Source: Takakia lepidozioides
Taxonomy: Eukaryota > Plantae > Bryophyta
DNA: 64,000 bases
NCBI GenBank assembly: GCA_030704615.1
Contig: CM060731.1
Coordinates: 20,832,001-20,896,000 of the forward strand
Reading direction: 5' to 3'
The notes beneath the pieces are model-generated. The model was not told where the DNA came from, made no database searches, and worked only from the letters and a program-made list of their open reading frames with translations. A program made the translations under genes and the position numbers. Positions 5,745 through 50,983 of the stretch are shown here, piece after piece. Numbering within the stretch: the first letter of the stretch is position 1; each line of letters begins with the position of its first letter.

Positions 5745-6495
5745 CGGTTTGTTTATCTCTCACCAGTGTCTTCCTCTTCAAAATGTGCTTGTTCTCTCAA
5801 AGTCCATGTACAAGCTGGACCTTTTCATGTTCACAATGACATACTTGTTTTATCGCTCAGAGTCCATGTACAAGTTCAAGGTTTTCATGTTCACAATGTG
5901 TGTTTGTTTTTTTCTCTTAGAGTCCATGTACAAGCCGGTCCTCGTGTTCACAATGTGCTTGCTTTCTCTCTAAGAGTCCATGTACAAGATGGTCCTCATG
6001 TTCTAAATGTGCTTGCTTTCTCTCTCATAGTCCATGACATGTAAGCGGTATTTTTCATGTTCGGAACATGCTTTGTTTTTTCTCTTAGACAAATTGGTCC
6101 CAATCCTCTTCAGAATGTGTTTATCTCTCTCATAGTCAATACAATACAAGTTGGTCCTCCACTTCAAAATGTGTTTGCTTTCTCTTTCAGAGTCCATGTA
6201 CAAGCTAGTCCTCCAGTTTAAAATATATTTGATTTTTGCAGAGTCATACACGTACAAGGTTGTCCTCTATTTCAAAATGTGCTTGCTTTCTCTCAAAGAG
6301 GGTCATGTACAAGCGGGTCCTCATGTTCACAATGTGCTTGTTGTCTCTCTCAGGTACAAGCTAATAATTTTCATATTCACAATATGTTTGTCGTCTCTCG
6401 CATAGTCCAATATGTACAAGCTCGTCCGCCACTAATTCAGAATGTGCTTGTTGTCTCTCTCATAGTCTATGTACAAGCTGGTCCTACACTTCAGA
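5745..6495 (+). repeat. Degenerate minisatellite, unit about 45-48 bp (about 15-16 copies)
   Basis: Consensus approx. ctctcagagtccatgtacaagctggtcctcatgttcacaatgtgcttgtt repeated head-to-tail; it produces the repetitive RVHVQAGP ORFs. Confidence 0.9.
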
Positions 6496-6710
6496 CGAGG
6501 TTTAGAAGGTATCCAATCTTTCGAACACATGCTCAAAGTGTTATTTAGGAGCTGTCGTGCACTTCAGGATCATGCTACAACATACATTGATATCCAACCA
6601 CACTTCCTACCACACAATCCTAGAAAGCTATGCCACAATATTCACATTAAAGAACAAATCCCAGTTCTTCCAAGTGAAATCTCATTCCATCACATGAGGC
6701 AAAATGACAC

Positions 6711-7032
6711 TGTCAAGTTATTTCCCCACTAGTATGAAACTAGCTAGGAAATAGCTAGCTTTTACATATTGACATTTGGGATTGGCCCAAGTATCAATCC
6801 AGGGGTCAAGCAAATTTAGCCCTGGAGTGGTTTATCTTCACGCAAGCGCGGGAGGCTCATCTTTCTCGAGTTGAGCCTCACCGCGCCTAGCTATGGCGCA
6901 TAGTTGGGATTCCCCATGGCGTGGGGGTACACTGGCTGACTTGTATTTGAGTGACGAGTTTATTATGCATGAGTTTATGCTTCAGCTTTGTGAGCTCGCA
7001 TGAAGCTTGGGCTTGTATTCTTCTTCTTATCA
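6711..7032 (+). repeat. E1 5' terminal repeat A1 (TGT...ATCA)
   Basis: Begins tgtcaagttattt and aligns closely with 27849-28167. Contains the hairpin gaggctca-(tctttctcgagt)-tgagcctc. Confidence 0.9.
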
Positions 7033-7914
7033 CTCGAGAAGAGAGCTTGTATCTGTGAGTGCCAGATACGAGTTAGTTGTAGCACTTGTGGTTTTTGCTT
7101 GAGAATGAGAGAAACCAGGTTGTTATGCAAGGAGCACCGTGGAGCTCAACTTCAACCATAGACTAGCATGTGACAAGACAAGGAAGGAGGGGTGAAGCTC
7201 ATGTTTCATTCCCTTTTGGCTTAAGGTTTTGTGGTGATGGGTTGATCAAGCAAGTGATGCTTATGTGGAGCATGCTTCCAATATGGCTTCCAATTTCAAG
7301 CTTGAGGAGAGCTAGAGGTAAGGGGAGCAAGTTGATCCCTTGTGTATGAGGTGATGCAGGTGTGGAGCATGCTTTGGCTTGAGCTTTGCAATTTCAAACT
7401 TGAGAGGAGTGGCTCTTAAGAACTAGGCAAGGTAATGGAGCTTGAAGACCAAGGCTTGAGAGGAGACAAGGCTTGGTGGCTTGGCCAAAGGAGGTACAAG
7501 CTTGATTTTGAGTTCCAATGAGAAATTGAGCTTGTTGTGTGGCCAATGCATTGCTAGTTTAGTTGGAGACAACTTGAGTAGCTTAAGTTGAAGAAGATCA
7601 AGGGAATTGCCTTGGTACCCCATAGAATTCATGGATGCTTGAGGGGATAGCATAAGGAGCACAAACCTAGTTGGTAAAGCTAAACTAAAGGAAATCAAGG
7701 GGGAAGTGGCTAAAGCTTAGGGGAAATGGCTAAACCCGAGGGGGAAATGAACTACTCTATGAGAGGGAAATGGCTATTCCTAAGGGGAATACAAGGGGAA
7801 TACATATAGGCCCAGGGGAATATTCGGGGAATAATATGGCATATTCTCCTGAATATTCCTAAGGAACTTTGGGAACCCATTGGGAACGCATTGGGCACAT
7901 GGTGATATAGGAAG

Positions 7915-8110
7915 AGTCCTTGGAGGACCATTTGGAGGACCATTGGCAGTCCTTGGAGGACTGTTTGGAGGACCATTGGGAGTCCTTGGAGGACTGCTTG
8001 GAAGACCATTTGGGAGTCCTAGAGGACTGTTTGGGGTCCTGGAGGACCATTTGGAGTTATTGGAGGACTAGTTGGGGGGTCCTGGAGGGCCTATTTGGCG
8101 AGCTTGAGGA
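7915..8110 (+). repeat. Short tandem repeats (ttggaggacca/ctg) in the E1 leader
   Basis: Repeated 12-mer-based units give the LEDHLEDH and SSKQSSK low-complexity ORFs. Confidence 0.8.
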
Positions 8111-10549
8111 GTCTTTGGCGATTTGTGTGAGGGACTATTGGGGTCCTCGAGGGCTAAGTTTTGGCAGGCTCTTGGGGCCTTGGTGTACTGTTTTGGAGTC
8201 CCATCGTGCAAGGATTGGGAGCCTTAGTGAGATTGTTTGAGAGACATATTCTTGAGGGCTCCTGGAGAGTTATTTGAGAGACCCTTGAAAGGTAGTCTTG
8301 TCTATTGTTCAAGCAAGAGAGTGTGGAGATAGGGTAGTGGGATGAGGGCATGCTGGGATTAGGAATTGCTTTAGTCTCTTTTCCTTGTAGTCTTTCACCC
8401 TCTCTGTAAGCCAAAACATTTCCGTAGGTGGAGGCAAGAGTCAGTCCGGGTTTGGGCTGGGGTGTCATTGCAGGAGCGACACTGTGGAGTTGTTTTGGTG
8501 TGGGGGAGTTGTCGTCTTGATTTTCTTGTGTTTGGATCACCTCCCCAACTACATGCTTGACTGTGCGCCATGTCAGCTTTCACTACAACAAATTGCGGCT
8601 TTTACGTCTCTGTGTTATGACTGCAAATGCAGTCATGGAAGCCATTTACGACTTCCTGACTCTGCAAACGTAAAGACCTAGTCAGTGTGACATGGCAGAT
8701 ATGACTCTCCAGGCTGGCTGTCACGTGGCGCCAGAGCAGCTGGGGGGGGGGTAGTCATACACACTGGTTACTGAATGACTGAACGGACAGTGTAGTCCAT
8801 GTCAGTGGCTGTGCAAGAGTGGCACGTGCTCGATGCAGGAAATGACACGTGGTAGAGTGTTTAGCTCCCATGATGCGAAACTATGACTACGGGTGTGCTA
8901 ATCCGGTTGCAACACGTGGCCGCGTTGCAGTTTTTACACGTGGTCCATCAGCAGATTGACATGTGTCATGATGGGTGTTTTTTTGGGTATTTGGGGTGTA
9001 TTGCTATTTATTTAATATTGTATTTCTGCCACGTGGTGTAGTACTATTGGAGAGTGTGAAAATAGATGTAGTCATTATTATGACTATGATAGCGTCATGT
9101 ACATGTCTATTACAACAAATGAAATATAATATATAATACAAAGAGAAACAAGGCAGCAAGACATAACTGCAACAAGCTGAGAAAAACCAAGAGATTGCAT
9201 ACCATCTCTATTTACCAATCTATTTATCATTATCATTTTTGTTGCGATCTAAAAATACATTAAATAGTCGCATGTTCTCATGTGAATTATTTGGTCTAAC
9301 TATAACACTTTGAAAAGTGTTCACCCAGAATCTTCTAACTACTCATGGTATTCCATCAATCTGCAACCCATAAAAAACGGCTTGCATGGCTTGAAGAAAT
9401 TACTACAGCAAGGACATTTGTTGTTTTCCAAGTTCTTGCATAAGATGCACCAACCAATATTGCATTGTGAGACACTCACTCGAGTCCAGGGAGGGAAGGT
9501 CACTGAGCAACCTGCCAAGCGGAAACAATTAAGAGAATTATCTAATACCATGTATGAAAAAACCAATGCCAGTGGTTTATGGTAAACTTCTCTCCCAGTC
9601 CTAAACAAACCAAAGCAAAAAACGGTGGGTATTGGCGAAGTCGTCAGATACTTCACAAAGAAACATGCACTAAAAATGAAAACCAGGATGATAGGAAGGT
9701 CACTCACGTTTATATAAAGACATCTTGCCCATTGCCCAGCACCCTGCATCAACCACACTCTATCTCTATTCCTTCAGCTATCCATGCCTCTGCACAAATC
9801 AAGCATTCAGCGTTGCTGCTAGCAGCTGACAATGACAGCCTACATTTGTTCTAGGAAACACCCAACTCAAGTGTAGCACACTAGTTCCTATGCTGAATGC
9901 ACTGCTACTCTCTGAAATGTAACAGGCATTCACCTTTCTGCAGCCCGGGGAACCCCCAACTCAGTGTAGCACACTAGTTCCTATGCTGAATTGCATCTGC
10001 TACTCTCTGAAATGTAAACAGGCATTCACCTTTCTGCCCGGTTGACCCATCAGTGACTGGGCTCAGATAAGTATTCATTCCACAGCTTCTCCTCATCTCT
10101 GTTACCTATTTTTTGACACTTTCCTGTTGTATCATATCAAAGTCACTCCAAACTAGATTCACTCAACCAGCTAACTTGCAGAATTGAACATGTAAATTTA
10201 GGGCCGATTCTGATAAGAGGGAAAAACAGGGTGAAATGTGTTGAAGAAGATGCCTTCATTAGCAGTGCCTGATTTTATCACTTGTGCGCTGCTCCAGTTG
10301 ACCATCTACCCATGCAGGTTTCTTGTAGCTATTGATCCACAGGGAATCACATGTAAATCTTGTGCTTGAAATCTGGCCTTCTTGATGAATCTGGACCCAC
10401 ACGAAATCCCTGCTCCTTCAGCTATCATGCCTCTGCACAAATCATGCATACATCCTCGCCTTGCTGCTAGCAGCTGACAATGACAGCCTAGAATTGTCAA
10501 AGCAAACACTAGCAGGGAAAACAGGGTGAAATATGTTGAAGAAGGTACC

Positions 10550-11170
10550 TTCATCCTTTTCTCCATCATTTTGCTTTCAGGTGTCCAAAGCCCCATCCCG
10601 CGCTCCTGCTCTGCACACCCTTCAAGCATCGCATTCCACGACACCGCATCCAGTTCAGCCATAGTGTTGAACACTCCCTTGGCATCCTCAATGCTCCCAC
10701 ATTTAGCATACATGGCCACCAGAGCCATGTTCAGGATGACATCTGGTACAATTGCAGATTTTGATGATGTCACCAGGGATCTCTTTGCCCTTTTCCAGGG
10801 CTGCAGACGCACTGCAAACGCACACAAACGTTATGTCGGCGGCCTTCACCCCTTCCCCCATCATTTTCCCAAAGGTTGGAGCCTCCATCCCGCACCCCAG
10901 CTGTGCATACCCAACAAGCATCGCACTCCACGACACCACATCTCGTTCAGCCACAGTGTTGAACACTCCCTTTGCATCCTCAATGCACCCACAATTGGCG
11001 TACATGTCCACCAGGGTAGGGGCAGTGTTCAAAAGGACATGTGGTAATTTGACAGGCATTCACATCCTGACTTGGCTATTCCCAACCCATCCTGCCATTG
11101 GCAAGAGATTCCACAGAAACTGATAGTTGTCTGTTTGACTGTATAACTATGTATCTCTTGCTTTCTTACA
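10550..11170 (-). pseudogene. Captured PLS-class PPR gene fragment (frameshifted)
   Basis: LVDMYANCGCIEDAKGVFNTVAERDVVSWSAMLVGYAQLG and LVAMYAKCGSIEDAKGVFNTMAELDAVSWNAMLEG lie in two frames inside the CACTA element. Confidence 0.88.
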
Positions 11171-12749
11171 GCTTGTACTGTGACACGCGTAATGCTCTTG
11201 TTGTGTTGAATCATTTCACGCCTTCAGGTTTCAGAACAAACATTACCGTCTTTCTTTATCAGACATGTGCACCAAGACAGAATCTCACCAAAAGATTGTT
11301 GGTGTTCAACAGTACCATACATGAAGATAACTAGCACCAAAAGGGCATATGAAGCTTATTCTGCTCTCCACTGGTATTAACTTGCACCAGGACTTTCAAT
11401 GGCTGTCTTCCAGTCCACCCACGGCCCGCTATAAATGGCTTGCAACCTACAGATTTTCAAGAGAGCTGATTACCATGAAAATTTCAAAACTGGCTTTACA
11501 AACCTAATAATTCAAGCATAATCAGCATTCAAGCTAAGGAAGCTTTACAAGCATCGTGTTGCGAGTAAAGCCTTGGCAATGTCACCAGGAAATCCCTGGC
11601 TGAATGGATGACACTGAAATAATGGAGCTTGAAATCCGGCCCTCTTGGACGAATTTGGGCCCACACTCTATCCCTGCTCCTTCAGCTATCTATGCCTCTG
11701 CACAAAATCCTTCAGCTATCTATGCATTCATCCTTGCCTTCCTGCTAGCAGCTGACAATGACAGCCTAGAATTGTTCCAACAAACACCCCCAACCCTACT
11801 TATCAACGAGCAATGAGCTAACTTACAAAATTCAATATGCATCTCAGGGCGTCTGATGAGAGGGCAAAACATGCTGAAATAGGTCGAAGAAGAAGGTGCC
11901 CTCACCACACTGTCCTTGACCTTGTGTCATGACCCATGGAGGATTTGACCTTGTGTGTGATGCTTGTGTCTGTAGTCAGGTAATGTCGGATTGGTCAATG
12001 AGAACCTGCACCACGGTGCAGCTGAGCAGGCAGACTTTGAAACACGGTCTGCTAAGACCAAGCTGACTCTCCCAAAAACCTTGTAAAACATCAGGAAGAA
12101 TATCAAATCATGGTACTAACAGGAGCCAACAACCCACATTTGCAGGATAGACAAAATTCTGCACATCGTACATTAAAAAAAAACAACACCTTGCGATTGC
12201 GGTCGCACCCTCGTGAGGGATCTTAAAAAAACTCATGCCAGCTCTGCTCCATGATTCAAATTCAGGGCTGAGTCTGATGAGAGGGCAAAATAGGCTGAAA
12301 TAGGTCGAAGAAGAAGGTGCCCTCACCACATTGTCCTCGACCTTGTGATGAACCCAAGATGACCTCTAGTGTGTGCTGCTTGTGTCTGTAATTAGGTAAT
12401 GTCGGATTGGTCAGTGAGAACCACCACGGTGCAGCTGAGTGGGCAGAGATTGAAACACGGCCTACTAAGACCAAGCTAACTCTCCCAAGAACCTTGTAAA
12501 CATCAGGAAGAATACCAAATCATGGTACTAACAGGAGAGCCAACCCACATTTGCAGGATGGACAAACTTCTTCACATCGTACATTAAGAAAAAGCCACAC
12601 CTTGCGATTGCGGTTGTCCCACCATCGTGAAGGATCTTTTAGAAACTCATGCCAGCTCTGCTCCATGCTGTAAAATCAGGGCCGAGCGGGTAGAGATTGA
12701 AACACGGCCTGCTAAGACGAAGCTGACTCTCCCAAGAAGCGGGCTCCCA

Positions 12750-12835
12750 GCCGAAACCTCCTCGCACACATACCCTAGCGTTTCTAGGGTTGCTTGCTCC
12801 AGATGCGAAGGTTGATCCAACTGCGGGCCTCCCAT
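12750..12835 (-). pseudogene. Captured importin beta-1 fragment
   Basis: MGGPQLDQPSHLEQATLETLGYVCEEVS resembles the conserved importin-beta HEAT segment 'KQATLETLGYLCEEVS' (recognised from memory). Confidence 0.7.
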
Positions 12836-12986
12836 GCATGTTTGCCCTCTCTCCCGCTCGCTCGCTCTAAGTCCCAACCCTCTCTCTCTCTCCCTCCCGC
12901 TCGCTCTAAGTCTGTTCACGCTACTGTGATGGGCAACTTTTTAAGTTTTTTAACCTTTTTGTAAACCCTAAAAGCCCCTTTTTTGA

Positions 12987-13190
12987 TTTTTTTTTTTTTT
13001 TTTTTCTTAAAGGAAACCACAAGCCCTTGAGGAGGGGGAAAATTCACCCGCCTTCATTTATGGGCCATAAGACCTACAGGACGATCAACGTCAAGACATA
13101 CCTCGAACAATCCCACACACGGGATAAGGGCAGCGGGTTTGAACCCCAAACCACAAGGACGACACACTGTGCACTTACCAGCCGATGTGA
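12987..13190 (-). mobile_element. tRNA-derived SINE inside the CACTA element
   Basis: Minus strand has a B-box GGTTCAAACCC, a body shared with 46900-47110 and 39970-40065, and a poly(A) tail. Probable TSD tgattttttt. Confidence 0.75.
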
Positions 13191-13952
13191 TTTTTTTTTA
13201 ATCTTTGTTTTTTTTGGGTTTTTTAATTCATTCTAGTGGTAAGAGTCTCCGTTTTTTTAAGATATAAATACTCATATATTATATATATAACCAGAAAAGC
13301 ATGTGTCGACACGTGTAGTCATGTAGTGATTCATCCATGTGATGATCTGGCATAATGCATTAGAGTGAGAGTCATGAAGTCATATGTCTGTCTTGCAATA
13401 TGCACACGTCATTCTAGTGTAGCCATGACCGTGACTGGTAGTCATATCTGCCATGCCAATATTCGTGGTCAAACATGTTTGACCTGTGTTGCGCAGAGTC
13501 CGATGCCATGCAGTCGCATATACGCCTTCTCCAGACCTGCATTATGACTTCAAAAGCATTTTACGACTGCAAATGGCATTTCTGCCACAAATCTGTCATG
13601 ACTGCGCATCCATGGGAGTCATAAAAGCCGCAATCTGTTGTAGTGTTTGTGTGGGCGCTTGTTTTCATAGGAGGTTGGTCCGGATTTGATCACCGGTCAA
13701 TCCTAGAGAGTGCTGTCGGTGGTGAGGCTGGGGTGATGACCAGTCAGACCATCATTGTTTCTCTTATGGTGAGGCTGGGTTGATGACCAGCATACCATAG
13801 GAGTGCTTGCGGTGGATGCAGGTGCAGGTTTATGTTACGAACCTAGTAGTCTAAGCCATAAGCTGCAACAGGTTCTCTACCCGGTTACCTTGTGGAAAGG
13901 GGGATTAGAGACAGGTTTACAACAGGTGTGGTTGTGAGTTTTTATCACGGAG

Positions 13953-15506
13953 GTGCCACCAATTGCTGATGAGAGTGCCGGTAGAAGCACCAGCGATACT
14001 AGTGGGTATACAAGACGAGGTGTGCGGTTTAGGCCACCTTCACCTTCAGTGTCTTCTGAGGAAGGTTCAGACTCAGAGTCAGGAGGATTCTCGCCGAGGG
14101 TGCAAGTCATTTCCGTGCCATTGTTGTGGGACACGATGGAGGAGATGTATGGAGCTACCAAGGGGCCACGTAGGTACTCTGGAGCTGTGGGCACCATCGA
14201 GCTTAATGACTTCATACAAGAGTTTGATAGTTGGTGTGATTTGCAACAGATGCGCAATCCACAACTGTTTACGCCTTTTATGGCGTGGAAGGGGTTGTTT
14301 CAGCACCTTGAGGGGCCGCCCATGGATGACTACCATGAGTTTAGGCGGGGACATGAGGTGGAGATTGAGGAATGGCGGGTGTATTAGTCACCTGACTATG
14401 TCTCCATCACTAGAGGCACAAGGGTAGTAGTGACACCGACAGCTTCTGCAAACAGCAGTGGGACGTCAAGTGGAACAGGAGCTGGGAAGTCCACCCAAGC
14501 TCCTGCTGCAGCACCAACACCCGTGCTTGCCTTTAACCCAGTTGTGGAGTTCTTCGAGGAGTTAAGGAGAAACTACCAGGGGATAATGACGGAGAAATTG
14601 CGGAGTTTGCAAGAGTTCCAACGAAAGCCTGCCGAGAGTTTAAGGGAGGCTTACACGCGCATGAGGCGCTTGATAAACATAACTCAAGGGGTTACAGAAG
14701 CTCAAGTAGTCCAATTTTGGTATGGGATATTGGACAAGGAGTTGAAGAGAAGGGTGTGGGATGCAACTCTCCTACAAGTAGCCCAACCCACCTTAGCAAA
14801 CGTGTTTTTGCTGGCAGAACAGATAGAGCTCAATATGGTGGAAGAGCGAGTGGTCATGGTGGGGTTCAGTAACGAGACACAACGAAGTGGGGCTCCTAGC
14901 CAACAACAACCACTACCCCGACGTGCTCAAGGCAAGAAATGGGCTCAGGCGAAGCCCAGGGAAGGACATAGAGGATCTCAATTGCAGAGGTCATTTCCTT
15001 CATTCTAAGAGCAACAACAGTCGGGAGTGACATGTTGGGATTGTGGAGGACCCCATGTTAAGAGAGATTGCCCGGAGAGAGGCAAAGGGCCGGCACAGGC
15101 ACAACCTACACAACTACAGTGTAGGCATTGTGACAAGTATGGGCATGAAGAGACCCATTGTTATGACTTGCATCCTGAGCTACGGCCAGGCCAGTTCCAA
15201 GGGAACAATAGACAAGGCAATGTAGTCCAGAGAGGTAGAGGAGACAGAGGTCGTGGTGGAGGTCGTAACCAAAACCAAGGAGCACAGGGTCACGGTCAAG
15301 GACATGACCAAGCCATGGTAGATAGGCTTGCCCAACTAGAGCAACGTCTTGCTACCATGGCCACTACTCATGTTGCGCCAGCTCCAAGGCTTGAGGTTCA
15401 AACCCCACCTGCACAACCTCCTATGCCTAGGGAAGACCAGATTGGTATGGGCTTCATGTGTGGAGCCGCACTTGCACATGTGGACTCTGCAACTGCTGTC
15501 ACTTGA
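13953..15506 (+). pseudogene. Retrotransposon gag (E1) with two CCHC zinc knuckles, interrupted by stops
   Basis: Capsid-like region (ESLREAYTRMRRL...FWYGILDKEL), then CWDCGGPHVKRDC and CRHCDKYGHEETHC. Stops at about 14385 and 15006. Confidence 0.88.
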
Positions 15507-15604
15507 GCAGTAACGCGTGCTCTTGAGCCAAGAGGAGGGATGAGGATTTTGATCCACAAAGAGGGGAAGCAAGTCTATAGACAAGGCTTCCACAGTCTTT
15601 CACA

Positions 15605-16723
15605 TTGGCTGAGACAGTGCCAACTATGCCATCGATAGCACCCGCTCGCCCAAGTGTGTCAGAGGTAGAGCCACGTGTGCCATTGGGGAGAGTTGGTATG
15701 GCTCGGGAAATGCCAATGGGTGGTACTGCAAAGCAAGGTGCAACCAGTACATTGTTGGGGGCGGCTACGGCCATTTGCCAAGCTCCATTGTTTTATGCCA
15801 CGACAATTGCAATGCCGGGGATGCGGCCAGCTGCAGTGTTTAGATTGGCAGCTGCACACTGTGAGAGTGGTGATGCATCGACACTATTTGCGGGGATAGC
15901 GGATCAGGTGCAGTGCATGGATGCCCTGGATTCAAGGGTGAAGACAGCCACAGCTGCGCCATGGCAAGCGACAGCTGCAAGGTTGAAGGAGTTGCTAGCT
16001 AGACCAGCCATTGAGCGTAGTATGGTGACTTATAGGGTAGTCCTGGTGGACAATCAGGATGGTGTGTTTCAGTTGGGTGGCCTAGCCGGGAGGAGGTATA
16101 GGCCACTGCAGGTCTTGTTGGACTCGGGAGCACAGCCATTGATATTGGGGAGAGCAGCAATTGCAGACTTGGGCCTTATAGAGGCGGATTTGGAGCCTTG
16201 CCCTTTCCAAATTCAAACATCTTTGGACGGTTCAGAGAAGGCACGAGGGATTACATGCCATGAGCTCTTCATTCGATTGGAGCCAGATCATGCTACAGAT
16301 GGCTCTGTCATGAGAGCTAAAGCCATTGTTACGGACGTGGTGTCTTATGATGTGCTTGTTGGTGGGGCTGTGTTATACCCGATGGGCTTTATTTTGGACT
16401 TTTGGGAGGAAACGACATCCTATAGGCCGGAATGGCAGTCAGAGGATGGTCGACGTGCACTGCTCCCAGTGCAGTTTATTGGGAATGTAGCGGTGGATCA
16501 TAGGAACATGATGCCCACATTGGCTGCATTCTCAGGGGTGGTGGCTTGGGGTGGTGAGCTCTTGGAGGGCAATAGCCATGCAGATGATAGGCCACCACTT
16601 GATGAGGACAAACAATTAGCATACAAGGCTGATTTGCTTCCTCATGTGCCTGTTCATATTCCACTGTGGGGTACAATTGGGAATTTGCATCGAGTAGCAA
16701 GCGAGTGTGTGCACCAAGCATGA
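15605..16723 (+). pseudogene. pol: aspartic protease region
   Basis: VLLDSGAQPL catalytic motif (about 16111-16140) and downstream YDVLVG motif. Confidence 0.85.
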
Positions 16724-16834
16724 CATGAGGCATATCCATTGGTGAGTGAGGGGAGTTCAGTGACATCACCTGGATCTCCTCAGTTAGCTCCTTTGGACAC
16801 AATGCCCATTACCTGACAACCACCTGACTCAGGG

Positions 16835-17800
16835 ATTTGTTTGCTAGACATGTTTGGAGGTATGAGCACTGGGCTTGCAGGAGTGTTGCAAGCAGAGATT
16901 AAAGTAAACAAGTACTTGTATGTGGAGAAGGATGAGATAGCTCAGAGTATTTCTATGCGCCACATCGCCTTGCTCACACACCGGTATCCTGAGTTGTTGC
17001 CTCTCTCAGCAATTCAAGGGTATCAAAAAGCCTTGCCAGCAGACATTACCTTGCTGGGGGCGGATGATTTGAACCGGCATGGTGCCATTGACTTGGTGAT
17101 AGCTGGATGGCCTTGCCAAGGACACTCTCCCGCAGGTCATGAGAATGGCTTGCATGATGCACGATCGCATTTGTTTTGGGAAATGTTGCGAGTGTTGTGG
17201 GACTTGTAGACGAGGCAAGTGCAACCTCTAGGCTATATCTTGGAGAATGTTCCTCTTATGGGGGATTCTCGGGCCAGGATAATGGCCAGTGTGCATCACG
17301 TGCGGTCTTGGATTGGATCGGCGGTGCTATTGGATGCAGCAGCGGTGGGATCACGCGCGCATCGACCTCGATTGTGGTGGACCAATCTTGCACCACCGGA
17401 GCTGCTCAAGAGAGCATATGATTCCATTCAACGGCCACCCAATCTCACGGTTGAGGGCATTTTGGACCAAGGGAGGCAACCACAGAGGGTGCGACATGAT
17501 GACCGTCCACCTCTAGCAGTGGTCAATCGAGTGGGGCAGCCACATACAGCCTTGCCTACGTTCATGAACTTTCCCTCGTCTCATGCTTTTCGAGACAATG
17601 GTCCTGGGTTGATTTGGGACAGTGTGCTACAACAATTGGTGGAGCCCAATGCGGATGAGCGCGAGCGGGCAATGGGGTTTGCCACGGGCACTACATCTAT
17701 GCCAGCTCTATCAGAGGCATCACGACGTCGTGTGTTGGGTCAGACAATGGATCTAAATTGCTTGACATGGATAATTGGCTTATGCATGGCTGAGCAATGG
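16835..17800 (+). pseudogene. pol: C5 cytosine DNA methyltransferase domain between protease and RT
   Basis: Motifs in canonical order: I LLDMFGGMSTG, II YVEKD, III ADIT, IV DLVIAGWPCQGHS (catalytic PC), VI YILENV, VIII AHRPRLWW, IX PNADERERAMGF, X RRVLGQTM. One in-frame TAG at 17207 separates two same-frame ORFs. Confidence 0.92.
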
Positions 17801-18339
17801 AGATTGCAAACATTGATGGCTATTTCTACACTCCCATTGGATGGTGCATCCTCCCTGTCCACCCGGGACGGTTGAGACAGTGAGTGGGGGCGAGCACAAG
17901 ATCGTGGGTTGCAAACACCCATGGCAGATGTGGGATGAGATGTGCAAAGAGAGAGTCATTGGATCTCTCAAGCAGCAGTATGAGGAGTGGGGATAGCCAT
18001 GAACTGAGGATCAGTTGGAGGCCAAGGTAGCCAAGGTTTTTGAAGAGGTTGAGAATGTTTCTTGCTCAGAGGATGTTCTCAAGGTGGCTATGGCGGAGCA
18101 AGTGGAGGCTACGCCACAGTCAGAGGTTGCTATCTAGCAACCAAATGATTCGTCTCCTACCTCCAAGCCTGGTGTATCCAAGGTTGCAGTCACTGAGGAC
18201 AATTGGGAACCAGATGTTGGACCTACAGTCACCGGAGGATCCAGCAATTTCTAAGGGCTTATAGAAATTGCTTTGCCTTCGGTTTGAAGGATTTGGGGAG
18301 TTTGAAGGGTTAGGAGATTCGTATTGATTTGGCAAGTGA

Positions 18340-19510
18340 CACGCCAATCTTTCGAAGGCCCTACCGGTATAGTGACATGGAGAGGTCATTGATCCAGTCA
18401 CGGACTATGAAGTTGTTCGAAGCTGGATTGGTGGAGTTGTCAGGCGGGGAGTATGCCTCGACAATGGTGATCCCAGCTAAGTAGGATATCTATGGCAATT
18501 GGACAGAAAGAAGGATGTGTGGGGACTATCGTCCTGTGAACCGTCAGACTAAGTCCGATAGATATGCCATGCCAATTCCAGAGAAAATCTTTGATGCCAT
18601 TGGGCATGCGAAGGTGTTTAGCACATTGGACTTGCGATCCGGTTACCACCAGTTGCCAATCAAAGAGGCTGACAAGCAAAAGACGACATTCTGGGGGATT
18701 GACCAACATGGGAAGGATTGCTTGTACCAATGGAGTTTCCTACCGTTTGGGCTGAAGAATGCTCCTACAGAGTTTCAGAGGGTTATGGATGGGATTCTCG
18801 CGAGGCTAGACTTTGCCTGGTGTTACATTGATGACATCATTGTCTTTAGTGCTACGGTTGAGGAGCATGAGAGACACCTTCAGGTGATGTTTGAGCGCTT
18901 GAGAGCGCATTGGTTGAAATTGCACCCTGAGAAGTGCAAGTTCTTCCACAACCAGATTGAGTATCTGGGCCACATGATATACCCTGGAGGATTGGGTGTT
19001 CAAAAAACGAAGGTGGAGGCCATTGCACGCATTCCACGCCCCATAGATATTAGCATAGTTCGTGCTTTCATGGGGTTGGCAAACTACTATCGACGGTTTG
19101 TCAAGGGATTTAGCAGCATTGCAAAGGCTCTTACCAAGTTGACCAAGGTGGGTCAAGAGTGGCAATAGGAGGAGGAGCAGGAGGAAGCCTTTGAGGAACT
19201 CAAGGCTCGATTGACTTCTGCACCTATTCTGAGGCGGCCTATTCGAACAATGATGCCGAGGCGAAGTATAGCTCATATGAAGGGGAGTGTCTAGCTATGA
19301 TATGGGCAATGACACATTTCAGATGCTACCTCTATGGCAACCTCTTCACCCTTATCACGGATCACCAACCATTCAAGTGGTTGATGGAGTCAGACAAGTT
19401 TACAAATAAGCTTGCACGGTGGGCACTTATGCTTCAAGAGTACGACTTCCAGGTGGTGCATCGAGCCGGTATAGTCAATCGGGATGCAGATGGGTTGAGT
19501 TATAATCCAT
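18340..19510 (+). pseudogene. pol: Ty3/Gypsy reverse transcriptase and partly deleted RNase H
   Basis: RMCGDYRPVN, FSTLDLRSGYHQ, LPFGLKNAP, YIDDIIVFS, YLGH, FMGLANYYRRFV. RNase H C-terminal part: YSSYEGECLA...TDHQP...NRDADGLS. The N-terminal catalytic segment is missing near 19245. Confidence 0.93.
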
Positions 19511-19869: not shown

Positions 19870-21140
19870 CCTCATCTAACACAACGAGCGCGATTGGTAC
19901 GCCATGCCCATGAGGAGTTGGGACATTTTGGGGTGTGGCGCACTCATAGTTTGCTGCAAGGACAGTACCGGTGGCGGGGCATGCACACGGATGTGCAATA
20001 GTTAGTGGCAAGGTGCCTGGTGTGTGATAGAGTGCGGGCTTCTTTCAATGCACCTACTCCACAATTCAATCCTTTATCCATTATGGGTTTGGGCTATTGT
20101 TGGAGTCTTGACTTTGCAGGCCCATTGCCACTAACGATTCGCCATAACAAATATGTGCTGGTGATGGTGGAACATTTCTCCAAGTGGATTGAACTGGTGG
20201 TATTGCCTGACAAGGCAAGTGAGGAGGCTGCGTATGCATTCTTAGATTGAGTGCTTAGCCAATTTGGTGCTCCAGCCGAGGTACTCACGGACCAGGGGAG
20301 AGAGTTCTTGGGGGAGTTTCAGGCTTTGTGTGAGCAAGCCTTGATAGATCACCGCACAACTTCTCGGGATCATCCCGAGGCTGATGGCCTGGCAAAGAGG
20401 GTTGTACAAACAGTCAAGCGAGGCTTGCGTAAGTATGGCTTGCAGAAGGGACACTTAGGAGATTGGGACCTTCAGCTACCTTGGCTAGCCATGGGCTACA
20501 TGTTTAGCAAACAATCATCATTTGCCTCGTTCTCGCCTTATTTCCTTCTCTTTGGCCGAGAGCCAGATTTGCCTGCATCTATTCGCAGGGAGACTGTAGT
20601 AGTCCTCAACCTTGATGATCCTAGCCGATATCCCCCTCCACGTACAGTGGCATACCTCAATGTGTCTCGGTGTTGGGCAATAGCAAGGTTCTCAAAAGCC
20701 ATAGGCATGACTCTCTTGAACAACTCTGCCCGCTGGGCACATGCTTGTGTCCACACATCCGTTTCCACCCTGGGGACTATGTGTATCTGTAGCAGACAGC
20801 GCCTACGACTTTGGATGTCACAGCAGGGCATGTGATTCTAAGGGTCCGGGAGGTGTTGCATTCAGGAGTGTTGATTCTGGAGGGTCGAGATGGCATGGTA
20901 TGGAAGGACCATGTACGCAATTGTGCGCCATGTCACCTTCCACATGTGGATGGGAGGATAGATCCCAACCTTGCAGTGGTACCTGCAGGGTTGCGTTGCA
21001 TGCTATGCGGGCATGCTGGTGGTGCCGCGACCATGTTGATGTGTGACAAATGCTCAAGGGGGTGGTACATGGGATGCTTGACACCACCACTTGAGGAGGT
21101 TTCTAGTGAAGAATGATTGTGTCCACGATGCCTTGGATAG
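19870..21140 (+). pseudogene. pol: DDE integrase with C-terminal PHD finger (E2-derived 3' part)
   Basis: HHCC (HEELGH...CLVC), SLDFAGP, LTDQGREF, ADGLAKR (E>K). PHD CMLC...CDKCSRGWYMGCLTPPL...*LCPRC at 20997-21131. Confidence 0.9.
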
Positions 21141-21402
21141 AGGTAGTGGGGCATGACAGTGGTGAGGTTGACAAGTGATTCAAGATCTAGCTAATGGGAG
21201 TTCGATGCCATGGACACCCAATTGAAGCCATGGATTGCAGGAAGGCGAGTAACGATGGGGCTACTTTTGCACCCAGCCTCTTGATCTATTGACTTCAGAT
21301 AGTGGGACTTGGGCGATTGATGACCAAGCGATGATCTTATTGGGATGGATACTTGTCAGCTATCCGGTATTAGAGGGACCTAATCACCAGCTAGGGGGGT
21401 GA

Positions 21403-21940
21403 TTGTGGCATAGCTCTAGGATTGTGTGCTTAGATTGTGTGGTGGACAGCGATGTATGTTGTGGCACGATGCTTAGGTGCACGACAGCTGTCATGGTTTT
21501 AGTCATGGTTAACTAGAATTACCTACTTCTAGTTAACTAGTACATTTTGGATATTTATATTTGTATTTTGTGTGTTGGGACTTCATTTGGTCTCATATGC
21601 CAAGTGAGGTGTCAAACCTCACTTGGGACACGGGGATGGGTTTTCCCCTTGTGAGCGTTGAGGAGGGCTCATCTTCTTGTAGTTGAGCCTCCATGAGCCT
21701 CTTTCACCTCCATAGCTCTAGGTATTGAGAGGGAGTGTGTTGAGGGCTTTGTAGGGTGGATTTCCTTATCAAGGGTGCCCTTGGCTTGACTTAGTTTATG
21801 TGATTGAGTGGATTCAAGAGTGGAGTGTTTCCATTGTGTTCACTTTCATTATCATTGTGGCATAGCTTTCTAGGATTGTGTGCTTAGATTGTGTGGTGGA
21901 CATCGATGTATGTTGTGGCACGATGCTTAGGTGCACGACA
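21403..21940 (+). repeat. E2 3' terminal block B1(21403-21486)-GC-A2(21489-21854)-B2(21855-21940)
   Basis: Follows PPT aggggggtga. B1 matches B2 (ttgtggcatagc...gtgcacgaca), and A2 is the reverse complement of 26709-27074. Followed by TSD ctcc. Confidence 0.92.
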
Positions 21941-22249
21941 CTCCGAACCCCAGGACGATATCCTCCACCACGTATAGTGGCATACCTCAACGTATCACGG
22001 TGCTGTGCAATGGCAAGGTTCTCAAAAGCCATGGGCATGACTTTCTTGAACAACTCTGCACGCTGATCACATGCACGTACCCACACGTCTGGATCATCAA
22101 GGTTAAGGACTTGAGCAATGTCCATACGAATGGCTGTAGGCAAATCCGACTATCGGCCAAAGAGAAGGAAATATGGTGAGAAAGAGGCAAGTGATGCTTG
22201 TTTGCTGAACTTGTAGCCCATGGCTAACCAAGGCACCTGAAGATCCCAG
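21941..22249 (-). pseudogene. E1 integrase fragment, inverted (left flank of the E2 insertion)
   Basis: WDLQVPWLAMGYKFSK...LNLDDPDVWVRACDQRAELF...RGGGYRPGVR, which continues as RFSPGDYVYL at 27075. Confidence 0.85.
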
Positions 22250-23800
22250 ACTCAGGAGCAAGAGGTGGACCATCCGGCCTTGGAGCCGGTACCACCTGAG
22301 CTGTAGCCATGGTAGCGAGCCTCTGCTCTAGCTGCTGAAGCCGGTTGGCCATGCCTTGGTCAACACCCTGACCTCCGCGTCCTTGGCCATGTTGAGCTTG
22401 CCCTTGGCCTACACCTCGTGCCTGGCTACCTCGTCCTCTCTAGGCTGCCCCACCTTGCCCCCGGCCACCATTGTTCCCTTTGAACTGGCCTGGGCGCAAC
22501 TCAGGATACAAACCATAACACTGGGCCTCTCCATGCTCGTGCTTGCTACAATGCCCACACTACAACTGTGCAGGCTGTGCATATGCCGGCCCTTTGCCTC
22601 CCTCTGGGCAATCCTTCTTGACATGGGGTCCTCCACATGTCCAACATACCACCTTCGCCCGTTGTTGGCCTGCAAATGAAGGGAGAGACCTCTGCATCTG
22701 AGGTCCTCTCTGTCCTTCCCTGGGCTTCACCTGGGCCCTCTTGTTGCATTGAGCACGTTGAGGTAGTGGTTGGCTAGGAGCACCACTACCCCATGGTGTC
22801 TCCTTAGCAAATCCCACCATGACCACTCGTTCCTCCACCATGTTGAGCTCTATCCGCTCTGCCAGCAAAAACACATTTGCTAAGGTAGGTTGGGCCGCTT
22901 GTAGGAGAATTGCATCCCGCACCCTTCTCCTCAGCTCCTTGTCCAATATCCCATACCAGAATTGGACTGCCTGAGCTTCCGTAACCTCTTGGGTTACATT
23001 TATCAAGCGCCTCATGCGAGTGAAAGCCTCCCTCAAGCTCTCAGTAGGCTTCCATTGGAATTCTTACAAGCTCCGCAACTTCTCTGTCCTCACCCCTTGG
23101 TAGTTCCCTCTCAACTCTTCGAAGAACTCCACAACAGGATTGAAGGCAGGCACGGGTACTGGTGCTAGTGCGGTAATGGCGTGGGTGGACGTCGTAGCTA
23201 TGGTACCACCAGTCCCACTAGTCTCACTGCTGTTTGCTGAAGCTGCCAGTGCAGCGGCAGGTGTAGCCACTGCCCTCGTGGCTCTAGTGCCCCTAGTGAT
23301 GGAGACATAGTCGGGTGACCAGTACATCCTCCACTCCTCGATCTCAACCTCATGCACCCGCCTGAACTCATGGTAATCATCCATAGGCGGCCCCTCAAGG
23401 TGCTGAAACAACCCCTTCCATGCCATGAAAGGCGTAAATAGTTGTGGATTATGCATTTGCTGCAAATCACACCACCTATCAAACTCTTGGATAAAATCAT
23501 CCAACTCGATGGTGCCCACCGCCCCAGAGTACCTTCATGGCCCCTTGGTAGCTCCATACATCTCCTCCATTGCGTCCCACAACAATGACAATGAAACAAC
23601 TTGCACCGCCGGTGTGAGTCCTCCTGATTCACAATCCGAATCAGAACCTTCCGTAGAAGACATAGGAGGTGAAGGTGGCCTAAACCGCACACCTCATCTC
23701 GTGTACCCACTAGTATCGCTAGTGCTCGAACCGGCACTGTCCCCAGCAACTAGTGGCACCTCCGTGTTGACAAACTGTCATTCAACCGGTCATGAACATG
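22250..23800 (-). pseudogene. E2 gag (paralog of 13953-15506), decayed
   Basis: GTIELDDFIQEFDRWCDLQQM, REAFTRMRRL, CWTCGGPHVKKDC. Ends abruptly at the deletion junction near 22250. Confidence 0.88.
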
Positions 23801-24439
23801 TCCCTAACCCCCTCTCCACAAGGTAACCGGGTAGAGAACCTGTTGCGGCTTATGGTTTGGAATACTAGGTTCCTAACATAGCCTACACCTGCACCTGCAT
23901 CCACCGCAAGCACTAATATGGTTGGCTGGTCATCACCTCCAACCTCACCACAAGATAAACAATAATGGTCTGACTGGTCATCACCCCAGCCTCACCATCG
24001 ACAACATGCTCTAGGATTGGCCGGTGATCAAATCCGGACCAATCACCTATAAAAACAAGCGCCCACACAAAACTAACATGGCGCACAATCAAGCATGCAG
24101 GTATGGAGAGGATCCAAACACAAGAAATCAAAACGACAACTCCCCCACACCAAAAACAACTCCATGGTGTTGCTTCTGCAAGGACACCCCAGCCCAAACC
24201 CGGACTGACTCTTGCCTCCACCTACGGAAAGGTCTTGGCTTAATGAGAGGGTGGAAAACTACGAGGAAGAGAATTAAAGCAATGCCTAACCCCAGCATGC
24301 CCTCATCCCAACACTTTTTTTCTCATCTCTTCCCTCACTTGCATGACCATGGGAATATCATGAAGATACTCCTCATACCGCCCTCCACGAGCTTCAAAAT
24401 TCGGCCTACAAGACCACATGTCAGTCCTTAGGCAGTCCA

Positions 24440-24945
24440 CCAGTGCCTTCACGAGTCAGCACAGGCTGTCCACAGGTCAACACGGGCCACCACAGACCAG
24501 CACAGGCCCACACAGATCACTGGTCACAGCCATCACAGCCCCACACAGGCCACAGCCCGTCACAGCCCGTCACAGCCCCAAAAGCTACAGGTCACAGTCT
24601 GTCACAGCCCTACACAGGTCACAGGGTCACAGCCCCACAGGCCACAGCCTGTCACAGCCCTACAAAGGTCACAGGGGTCACAGCCCCAAAGGCCACAGCC
24701 CGTCACATCCTGTCACAGCCCTACACAGGTCACAGGGGTCACAACCCCAAAGGCCACAGCCTGTCACAGCCCCTCACAGCCCGTCACGGCCCCACAGGGC
24801 ACAGCCTATCACAGCCCCAAAGGCCACAGGGCACAGCCTGTCACAGCCCCACATGCCACCTATCACAGCCCATCACAGCCCTACACAGGTCATACGATCA
24901 CGGCCCTATATGCCACAGCCCGTCACATCCCCATCCATGGCCACT
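24440..24945. repeat. cacagcc/cacaggt tandem array in the E2 leader
   Basis: Dense 8-10 bp (gt)cacagccc units; these produce the low-complexity HS/QP ORFs. Confidence 0.85.
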
Positions 24946-25419
24946 CATGGCAGTTTAGCCATTTCTCCAAGGGTTTAGCCACGCCAAGCTAGGGTTTGTG
25001 TCTCTTGGACTCTAGGCTTCTTTGCACCGAGCTATGGCGGCTGTGAAGAAATCAGCAAGGTATTCTTGCTCTTTCGGCGCCCACACACCACCAATAGTAG
25101 CCATAAGCCATGAGGAAGATGGTTGCCACAAACCAAGCCTTCTTTCTCACTTAGATTCCCCAAACACGCCACTAAACTCAATGGGAAACAACCAAGCTTT
25201 GCTGGTTTCCAGCCCTTGTGAGCACTCATTCAAGCGTTTTCCTTGGCCATAGCATCTGTCTTAGAGCCTATTCCAGCCCCCGACACCTGGCACTTCAAGA
25301 GCCATGCTCTATCTAGGCTTGAGGTTGAAACCCCACCTCACATATGCCCTATAAATGCTTTTCTTTCACCCAAGTGGGAACCAGCCCTAGCCCTTCCGTT
25401 CTAGCTCTCTAAAGCTTGA

Positions 25420-26708: not shown

Positions 26709-27074
26709 TGATAATGAAAGTGAACACAATGAAAACACTCCACTCTTGAATCCACTCAATCACATAAACTAAGTCAAGCCAAGGGCACCCTTGCTAAGGG
26801 AATCCACCCTACAAAGCCCTGAACACACTCTCTCTCAATACCTAGAGCTATGGAGATGAGAGATGCTCATGGAGGCTCAACTACAAGAAGATGAGACCTC
26901 CTCAACGCTCACAAGGGGAAAACCCATCCCCATGTCCCAAGTGAGGTTTGACACCTCACTTGGCATGTGAGACCAAATGAAGTCCCAACACACAAAATAC
27001 AAATATAAATATCCAAAATGTCCTAGTTAACTAGAAGTAGGTAATTCTAGTTAACCATGACTAAAACCATGACA
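26709..27074 (-). repeat. E2 5' terminal repeat A1
   Basis: 366 bp, reverse complement of 21489-21854. Starts TGT; the outer flank ggag (27075-27078) is the TSD. Confidence 0.92.
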
Positions 27075-27457
27075 GGAGGTTTAGCCCTGGTGACTATGTT
27101 TATTTGCAGCAGACTGCTCCTACGACCCTGGATGTCACTGCAGGGTGTGTTATTCTGAGGGTTCGAGAGGTGTTGCCCTCAGGAGTCCTGATCTTGGAGG
27201 GTCGGGATGGCATGACTTGGAAAGACCATGTGCGTAATTGTGCGCCATGTCACCTTCCCAATGTCGATGGCAGAATTGACCCAAACTTGGCAGTGGTACC
27301 TGCAGGTTTGAGGTGCATGCTCTGTGGGTCTGCCAAAGGGGCAGCCATCATGCTGGTGTGTGATCGATGCTCAAGAGGTTGGCACATGGGATGCTTGACA
27401 CCACCTCTTGAGAAGGTTCCTGATGGAGATTGGTTGTGTCCACACTTCTTGGGATAG
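27075..27457 (+). pseudogene. E1 integrase C-terminus with PHD finger
   Basis: RFSPGDYVYLQQTAPTTLDV...CMLCGSAKGAAIMLVCDRCSRGWHMGCLTPPLEKVPDGDWLCPHF (C4HC3 pattern, last Cys replaced). Confidence 0.9.
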
Positions 27458-27695
27458 TGACAATGGATATGACTAGAGGCCAAGCTCATATGAGTCAATA
27501 CACAAGATCCCAGGTTCAAGTTCACAGGTTGCAAGACGGCGACTAACGATGGGGCAACTCTTGCACCCGGCCTCTTGATCTATCGAGTTTGAGTGTAGTA
27601 AGGACAGTGGTGGAGGACTTAGTGAGGCTACGGTCATTATCACATCTTGTGGCTACCTGGACTTAGAGGGACCTAAGTACTAGCTAGGGGGGCGA

Positions 27696-28290
27696 TTGTG
27701 GTGGACTAGTGCTTGCCATAGTGGGCAGCCTAACGACTGACTAGTGGCAGCCTAGTGGTTGGACTAGTGGTGGACTAGTGGTATACTAGTGTGTGGTGTG
27801 CACATGTGTTGTGTGGTTTTGGACAGCGATGTAGTTGTGCACTACAGCTGTCAAGTTATTTCACCACTAGTGTGAAACTAGCTAGGAAATAGCTAGCTTT
27901 TACATATTGACATTTGGGATTGGCCCAAGTGTCAATCCAGGGGTCAAGGCAAATTTAGTGGTTATCTTCACAGCAAGCGCGAGAGGCTCATCTTTCTCGA
28001 GTTGAGCCTCACCGCGCCTAGCTATGGCGCCGTAGTGTGGATTCCCCATGGCGTGGGGTGCACTTGGCTTGACTTGTATTTGAGTGACGAGTTTATATAT
28101 GCATGAGTTTATGCTTCAGCTTTGTGAGCTCGCATGAGCTTGTGCTTGTATTCTTCTTCTTTATCTATTGTGGTGGACTAGTGACTGCCATAGTGGGCAG
28201 CCTAGCGACTGACTAGTGGCAGCCTAGTGGTTGGACTAGTCGCTGGACTAGTGGTGGACTAGTGGTATACTAGTGTGTGGTGTGCACATG
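27696..28290 (+). repeat. E1 3' terminal block B1(27696-27846)-GC-A2(27849-28167)-B2(28168-28290, truncated)
   Basis: Follows PPT aggggggcga. B is rich in actagtgg units, and A2 matches 6711-7032. Confidence 0.88.
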
Positions 28291-28515
28291 AGAGAAAAAA
28301 CAAATACATTGTGAAGTAGAGGACCAACTTGTACATGGACTATGAGTGAGACAACAAAATAAATGACGACACTTTATCTAAAACCAAGGCTTAAAGCTAC
28401 CTTTTATGAACTAGGAGACTTTAAAACTATCAGCTCCTTAAAGCCCTATTGAGTTCTGGCTTCTAAACCAAGGATCCATGCTAATAACCTGCTGTGGCCA
28501 TCTATTAACGGGGTA

Positions 28516-50650: not shown

Positions 50651-50983
50651 GAGAGAGAAGCAGAAGCGCCGCAAACGTTGAAATATGCGAGGGTTTGAGG
50701 AGGAGATCGGTGTAGCGTATCTTCTTGGGACAGAATCCGAAGTCTACGCTGTCTGAGAACGATCAGAGAATGCGAAATTGGAGTTTGTAGAAGGTCGGTG
50801 GTATAGTAATCTTCGAGTTTCTGACGTTCTTGTGCAGGTTGTAGAAGGGATTTGATTTCACTGGAGAGGGGATAGGACGGAGGGAGAGGGAAAGAGGCCT
50901 GATGCCAAGTAGTACTTTGGTAAGGTTCCGAATAAATCGCTCTGTAGACTTCGTATCAATCTTTGGACTCCTTGCGGTATATC

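Follow-up and report, generated by a model that had tools for sequence, protein, structure and literature searches.

The window analyzed here, a stretch of 64,000 nucleotides from Takakia lepidozioides (GenBank GCA_030704615.1, contig CM060731.1, positions 20,832,001 to 20,896,000), carries a Ty3/Gypsy retrotransposon with a DNA methyltransferase. We confirmed that positions 16817-17800 (plus strand) encode an unrearranged DNMT3-type C5 cytosine methyltransferase (DNMT) between the protease (PR) and the reverse transcriptase (RT) of this element, and that the domain is a conserved trait of a Ty3/Gypsy family rather than a single capture. The DNMT does not lie inside pol, as an earlier note on this DNA had claimed: a family-wide stop codon at 18135-18137 cuts it off from RT, so that it closes the Gag-PR frame. 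The explanation that we favor, with about even confidence in the whole of it, is a family related to KnitGypsy-Dnmt3 in which a Gag-PR-DNMT frame is followed by RT, RNase H (RH), integrase (INT) and a PHD finger expressed by readthrough, and in which a DNMT carried in the particle would likely methylate the cDNA before integration.

Identity of the methyltransferase domain

The C5-methyltransferase motifs reported in the earlier note at 16835-17800, with one stop among them, were found again. When this stop was read as X, the translation of 16817-17800 matched PF00145 with E 5.3e-12 and 46.2 bits (cut-off 22), which is the profile check that had been proposed for the repaired reading frame; the first half of the domain alone gave E 7.3e-10. 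The translation contains, in this order, DMFGG, YVE, GWPCQ, ENV, RAHRPR, ERERAMGF and LGQTMD, which we take to be motifs I, II, IV, VI, VIII, IX and X. Among solved structures DNMT3A was nearest to the window DNMT (E 1.8e-12), followed by DNMT3C and DNMT3B (3e-7 to 7e-5). DRM2 reached only E 5e-4, and a DNMT1 or CMT chain was absent from the 50 structure matches at E ≤ 1. For the relative P0002, modeled with AlphaFold (pLDDT 79.6), Foldseek ranked DNMT3A and DNMT3B first, with E 6e-17.

The window element is a dead copy. Besides the single in-frame stop within 16835-17800, at 17207-17209, it has two further stops between PR and DNMT (16721-16723 and 16814-16816) and frameshifts near 15.54, 17.86 and 18.24 kb. 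The stop at 17207-17209 is specific to this dead copy. In contigs of the host's public runs, which provided the only view of its genomic copies, that stop was missing from 97% of the contig depth, and the two stops 5′ of the domain were missing from 98% and 89%.

Organization and ends of the element

The domain order gag-PR-RT-RH-INT with a DDE integrase is the canonical Ty3/Gypsy order, and all coding features of the window element lie on the plus strand. Gag (13938-15536; Retrotrans_gag-like with a Cys/His knuckle region, PF03732, E 0.004) contains copy-level stops and is 47-50% identical to the N-terminal part of the Marchantia proteins Mp_4g09160 and Mp_8g17980. The aspartic protease (LDSGA, about 15980-16480) matched PF13650 weakly in this copy (E 0.07) and at E 3e-6 to 4e-4 in the relatives P0138, P0139, P0143, P0148 and P0151. 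RT (YIDD) was found at about 18452-18994 (PF00078, E 7e-33). The coordinates of protease and RT, both obtained by tblastn, agree with the earlier placement of the DNMT between these two domains. RNase H (19234-19452; PF17917, E 1e-20) has lost its N-terminal part and is about 35 residues shorter than in P0157. The DDE integrase (H2C2 and rve, 19870-20760; PF17921, E 5e-8, and PF00665, E 4e-5) has stops, and self-comparison showed a small inversion inside it at 20626-20759. It is followed by a PHD finger (20997-21110; PF00628, E 2.2e-5) and by the polypurine tract (PPT) CTAGGGGGG at 21391-21402, immediately 5′ of a repeat termed B. The same tract motif precedes B in L071, L074, L082 and a sister element in the window.

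A DIRS, Ngaro or PAT identity was ruled out by the rve and H2C2 integrase matches, the lack of a recombinase match and the presence of target duplications. In those groups a tyrosine recombinase replaces the integrase and no target duplication is made.

Two full, equal terminal LTRs are absent, and split repeats stand in their place. At the 3′ end of the window element the repeats are arranged as B-A-B (21403-21940, plus strand), with the B-A joint ACA-GC-TGT at 21484-21491 and the end ...CGACA at 21940. The 5′ repeat A, starting with TGTCA, lies on the minus strand at 26709-27074 and matches the 3′ A (21489-21854) at 354 of 366 bases. Its orientation is best explained by insertion of the element into the sister element and a later inversion. 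The 4-bp target-site duplication CTCC falls within the integrase of the sister element, at 21941-21944 (plus strand), and its second copy is at 27075-27078 (minus strand).

Two sister elements are thus nested in opposite orientation over 6711-28290. The outer one is internally deleted; its 5′ repeat A (6711-7028, plus strand, starting with TGTCA) is 92% identical to 27848-28161. An inverted integrase fragment, gag and leader occupy 21941-24310 on the minus strand, and the integrase end, a PHD finger (PF00628, E 3e-10) and B-A-B repeats occupy 27075-28290 on the plus strand, with the joint ACA-GC-TGT near 27845. An inversion between the two leader/gag regions best explains this layout.

Related loci have the same kind of ends. 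L071, L073 and L074 show the complete arrangement A-coding-PPT-B-A-B, starting with TGT (TAT in L073) and ending with ACA. The inner B-A joint reads ACA-NN-TGT, and this joint also occurs in L003, L011, L013, L057 and L082. Duplications of 4 bp were exact in six of the seven cases that could be read (window, L018, L048, L071, L073 and L074), while L040 agreed in three of four bases; those of the sister element and L060 were unreadable. L018, L040 and L048 have a short form, A-coding-B, with the 4-bp duplication, and about seven more loci end in a single B. This short form can be the product of a one-LTR circle, of recombination between the B repeats, or of assembly collapse. Inspection by eye for the TGG start of a tRNA primer-binding site after repeat A gave none in the window, L071 and L074.

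Taking B+A as the true LTR, one would expect A...B-A-B from a two-LTR circle that opens at the B-A joint and A...B from a one-LTR circle. Both forms are present among the loci. The permutation A-B-A-coding-B, which a symmetric two-LTR circle predicts, was found in none of the 14 loci whose 5′ A could be read. Integration from a cDNA circle that is cut open at ACA-NN-TGT is put forward tentatively, at somewhat less than even probability. A DDE integrase acting on circular cDNA would be unusual for LTR elements.

A conserved stop codon between methyltransferase and reverse transcriptase

In the window, the Gag-PR-DNMT frame ends at an in-frame stop in a readthrough-type context, TAG CAA CCA (18135-18143, plus strand). 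The corresponding linkers were compared in the 55 of 81 sequences in which DNMT end and RT start lie within 1.2 kb (26 were dropped); 47 of them were distinct at <97%. One aligned column holds a stop in 42 of the 47 linkers, TAG in 30 and TAA in 12, and CAA directly follows in 40 of these 42. At any of 1,489 codon columns of the domains, the stop fraction was at most 0.35, with a mean of about 0.014. Since about 39 of the 47 linkers come from one subfamily, with the context CAA CCC (a partial CARYYA) and then ATG, six subfamilies count as independent cases: L003-type, L005, L056, L060/L069, window and L082. The exceptions are L072 and L077, which are unaligned at this column, L030, where it is deleted, and L051 and L078, which have a sense codon. 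Among contigs of the host's runs, a variant at ≥4% was not found at the 18135 stop (232 contigs in X1, 158 in X2, 16 in X5 and 3 in X8).

Translation of RT-RH-INT-PHD by readthrough of this stop is quite likely, because the stop is conserved, an intact copy exists, the CAR-YYA context is present and fused relatives are free of the stop. The intact copy is L082, which naturally encodes Gag-PR-DNMT, then TAG CAA TCA, and then 1,047 in-frame codons of RT-RH-INT-PHD; its sole stop is the conserved one. Full CAR-YYA follows the stop in the window, L005, L060, L069 and L082, and this is the readthrough signal of TMV as given in the consulted part of PMC2194720. In the distant relatives P0222, P0157 and P0261 the two parts are fused, and no stop intervenes. 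In Marchantia, Mp_4g09160 (1,278 aa) and Mp_8g17980 (1,248 aa) are stop-free Gag-PR-DNMT proteins, and both terminate about 95 residues past the MDLN motif. RNA folds 3′ of the stop, viewed by eye in four copies and without shuffles, had no obvious common structure.

TMV (CAR-YYA), MuLV gag-pol and SIRE1, the readthrough cases described in that part of PMC2194720, resemble the window family in having a stop, CAA-YYN and a downstream enzyme frame. They differ in that the window family has a protease and a methyltransferase ahead of the stop, and in that its readthrough is inferred here. The same source reports that the gag-pol stop of Candida Tca2 gave no readthrough in S. cerevisiae, which would suit an alternative in which splicing, internal initiation of a message or reinitiation yields RT-RH-INT-PHD, and Gag and the DNMT are still expressed together. 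The largest subfamily indeed has an ATG two codons past the stop. However, this ATG is missing in the window, L005, L056 and L082, CAA after the stop is kept in six subfamilies despite dissimilar flanking protein, and the frame is preserved on either side of the stop. We consider this alternative unlikely and retain readthrough as the preferred reading.

Distribution, conservation and selection

With the DNMT as query we obtained 191 homologues of similar length, of which the best 120 were listed, and 61 longer proteins. Matches listed included proteins of Marchantia polymorpha, M. paleacea, Riccia sorocarpa, Calypogeia fissa and Sphagnum troendelagicum with 54-69% identity, so the occurrence in a land plant suggested by the earlier note extends over several genera. 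A homologue from S. fallax was 46% identical, and more distant relatives came from Closterium, Hariotina, Monoraphidium and JGI Chrzof1. A vascular-plant name was not found among the listed matches; this is weak evidence, as ORFs of such elements often go unannotated. Cluster look-ups of 30 proteins gave no vascular-plant or Klebsormidium name on element proteins, most clusters being unnamed.

A profile search returned 528 clusters at E ≤ 1e-30, and neighboring retroelement domains were present in 103 of the best 150 cluster representatives. Of 264 candidate stretches from metagenomes, 165 encoded a relative. The 80 stretches that were kept all have the order gag-PR-DNMT-RT-RH-INT-PHD as far as the contig extends, in line with the conservation of PR-DNMT-RT across copies that had been named as a check. 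These loci were picked by their DNMT, and members without it would have been missed.

In the host's own runs, of which X1 and X2 may be from the window's own sample, 13,467 contigs aligned to 3.7 kb of the element. Their summed depth was 50,000-690,000, compared with about 65 for single contigs, which suggests roughly a thousand copies in the host; summed depth is not copy number, and the figure is a rough order of magnitude only. Run X10, only guessed to be RNA, gave 17 partial contigs with <95% identity.

The DNMT domain is under purifying selection. Between subfamilies, where dS is near saturation, its dN/dS was 0.12-0.20 in five pairs with computable dS (four more pairs were saturated); the protease gave 0.26-0.47, and RT and integrase gave 0.06-0.15. 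Within one subfamily of decayed copies the DNMT values were 0.5-0.6, blurred by the decay, so that dN/dS stayed below 1 at both levels, as the earlier note had expected. Among 67 distinct copies out of 81, decayed as they are, the catalytic Cys is kept in 56 of 60 that cover the site, the Glu of ENV in 63 of 66, and the Phe of motif I in 54 of 55. Across algae and bryophytes the SAM-binding and catalytic residues are all kept. A DNMT tree of 38 rows placed the window in a clade of 12 rows (100/98) together with L005, Calypogeia, Sphagnum and Marchantia, and a quick RT tree of 19 rows gave the same order for L082, L056, window, L005 and Marchantia/L003; both trees were built without host enzymes and K. 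nitens sequences and have no true root.

These data bear on the possibility that a host methyltransferase gene was captured once and has evolved neutrally since. The window copy is dead and some dN/dS values within subfamilies are near 0.6, which would fit such a history. Against it, the DNMT has an equal position in the loci and the Marchantia proteins, introns are lacking, the trees are congruent and the 528 clusters at E ≤ 1e-30 form a large group; moreover, the match to DRM2 is far weaker than that to DNMT3A, and the motif order is unrearranged. We regard a single neutral capture as extremely improbable.

In GTDB, L082 (1-9285) and L083 (122-9919) are whole, intact DNMT retrotransposons within two cyanobacterial MAGs, where they are most likely eukaryotic contamination. 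L083 has a second ORF of 713 aa after the polyprotein. A prokaryotic or viral origin was rejected, as IMG/VR yielded one distant phage-type methylase (33%) and the GTDB matches were whole retrotransposons. The Atlas clusters ranked second and third are phage methylase, a feature-level likeness only.

Relation to known elements

Of the elements described so far, KnitGypsy-Dnmt3 of Klebsormidium nitens (de Mendoza et al. 2018, PMC5890265) comes nearest. We set it beside the window family by its published description, and its authors called it an acquisition in the K. nitens lineage. Both are Ty3/Gypsy elements whose DNMT3-related domain is unrearranged, free of introns and under purifying selection (Ka/Ks <0.2 as published), and both have A-coding-B-A-B repeats. 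In KnitGypsy-Dnmt3 the DNMT is part of the Pol polyprotein ORF, whereas in the window lineage the conserved stop separates Gag-PR-DNMT from RT. The window family also differs in that it lives in land plants and appears to have far more copies. A PHD finger, target duplication, ACA-NN-TGT joint and readthrough go unmentioned for KnitGypsy-Dnmt3 in the portion of PMC5890265 that was available. According to the same portion, SymbioDIRS-Dnmt3 of Symbiodinium is likewise a retrotransposon-borne DNMT3 with A-coding-B-A-B repeats. It has a tyrosine recombinase, in contrast to the DDE integrase and 4-bp duplications of the window family.

Chlorophyte elements (Hariotina P0219, JGI Chrzof1 P0173 and L083) share with the window a homologous DNMT (35-41% identity) and a C-terminal PHD finger. 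Their order is RT-RH-DNMT-INT-PHD in a single long ORF, where the DNMT stands between RNase H and integrase and would therefore be made at Pol level. No literature on elements of this order was found. Among the best 150 representatives (P0227-P0367), 90 place the DNMT after RNase H and before integrase, or hold a fragment of that order; in 13 it comes before RT or after the protease, and in 47 it stands alone. The DNMT domain has moved within the polyprotein.

The EpiLTRs of Cymbomonas and Euglena (bioRxiv 10.64898/2026.05.21.726589) resemble the window family as LTR retrotransposons that encode a DNMT together with a chromatin reader. They differ in having a DNMT4-related enzyme, a chromodomain and an extra Dam methylase, and in the text available their authors set them apart from Gypsy-DNMT3. 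There and in the corresponding text of PMC12344493, Gypsy-DNMT3 is treated as a group of streptophyte elements, citing the 2018 work. An opinion article of 2019 (PMC6338049, part of the text) stated that land plants such as tracheophytes lack transposons coding for a methylase; the bryophyte members narrow this absence to, at most, vascular plants. PHD, methylase and Marchantia do not occur in the accessible text of the REXdb paper (PMC6317226), and that of PMC10952607 mentions only host DNMT3. Literature on land-plant members, a leaky stop or target duplications was not found by a search that had most subscription journals outside its reach. The earlier note's remark that it knew of no well-characterized land-plant case stands as far as this literature goes, but the element is related to a published family and is not a new kind. 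It is a land-plant variant of that kind, and what it adds is the Gag-level placement of the enzyme before a stop that is probably leaky, along with ends whose structure hints that circles are integrated.

The function of retrotransposon-borne DNMTs has been open since 2018, when the known hosts were hard to work with. The stop-free Gag-PR-DNMT proteins Mp_4g09160 and Mp_8g17980 are annotated in Marchantia polymorpha, a genetic model. In addition, DNMT genes of such elements inflate the DNMT counts in bryophyte annotations.

Proposed role of the methyltransferase

In the mechanism that we propose, the main product would be Gag-PR-DNMT, and stop readthrough would give the full polyprotein with RT-RNase H-integrase-PHD. 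With the DNMT ahead of the stop and RT made by readthrough, the DNMT would therefore be packaged at near-Gag amounts. The protease would free it inside the particle, the enzyme would methylate new cDNA ahead of integration, and the PHD finger would guide the integrase to chromatin. The likely benefit would be that a new insert is already marked like host DNA on arrival. Methylation of cDNA was already proposed for DIRS-borne DNMT3s in the available text of de Mendoza et al. (2018, PMC5890265), where SymbioDIRS-Dnmt3 was found to methylate CG de novo in yeast.

Judged from their sequences, live copies are probably catalytically active. A DNMT domain kept for DNA or RNA binding, for base-flipping or as a decoy of silencing factors, with little methylation, would agree with the report in that text that the Klebsormidium Gypsy enzyme did not methylate yeast DNA, a result its authors deem inconclusive, and with the CpG footprint not being seen in the element. 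The retention of all SAM-binding and catalytic residues across algae and bryophytes counts against a role in binding only, since binding alone would not need those residues, and we hold such a role to be very unlikely. For CpG, the observed/expected ratio of the window element (0.45-0.59) did not fall below that of the flank (0.55) or the host PPR gene (0.36), and the intact L082 had 0.78; neither CpG nor CHG depletion pointed to self-methylation in the element.

If the enzyme is active, its main target may equally be the element's own cDNA or something else. Brought along with the PHD finger of the integrase, an active DNMT could work chiefly at the level of chromatin, either where the element inserts or at copies already present, and so lead to self-silencing or a local heterochromatin niche. 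The PHD finger accompanies the DNMT in both architectures (both occur in 49 of the best 150 representatives), the readthrough product would hold DNMT and PHD in one chain, and the host family is very numerous, with the 13,467 contigs over 3.7 kb. However, a DNMT ahead of the stop would be in excess over integrase-PHD, which fits particle cargo better, and the protease would likely separate the DNMT from the PHD finger. An action mainly on chromatin is thus rather improbable, more so than methylation of the cDNA within the particle.

The leaky-stop layout predicts amounts and location of the enzyme. If the proposal is true, the Marchantia copies make self-methylation and circle integration testable in a model plant. 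The widest version of it, an old PHD-bearing Ty3/Gypsy lineage from streptophyte algae with an active particle DNMT3 made via a leaky stop, cDNA methylation and circle integration all combined, is speculative, and we would sooner doubt than accept it in full.

Surroundings of the element in the window

A CACTA-type DNA transposon lies in the leader at 8581-13645, with the ends CACTACAAC...GTTGTAGTG and a 3-bp TTT duplication. It holds repeated PPR gene fragments at 10.3-11.1 kb and is thus a gene-capturing CACTA element. The PPR fragments of the window are presumably of the PLS type, a kind specific to land plants. Short tandem arrays at 7914-8130 and 24481-24953 differ between the two leaders, and an array of roughly 54-bp units lies just outside the sister element at 5770-6500, with a related inverted unit at 28288-28358.

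Host genes follow downstream. A multi-exon P-type PPR gene (31100-38112, plus strand) is 38-49% identical to a Pteridium protein and 31-41% to one from Striga; a close orthologue was not found in the protein search. Together with the PPR fragments and L35a, this gene indicates a land-plant host, which the Atlas placed no more closely than Streptophyta. An ORF at 50948-52063 (plus strand) encodes acidic repeats of about 70 residues without a Pfam match. An ankyrin-repeat exon of a host gene lies at 55580-56230 on the minus strand, and the host gene for ribosomal protein L35a was found at 58027-58371 on the plus strand.
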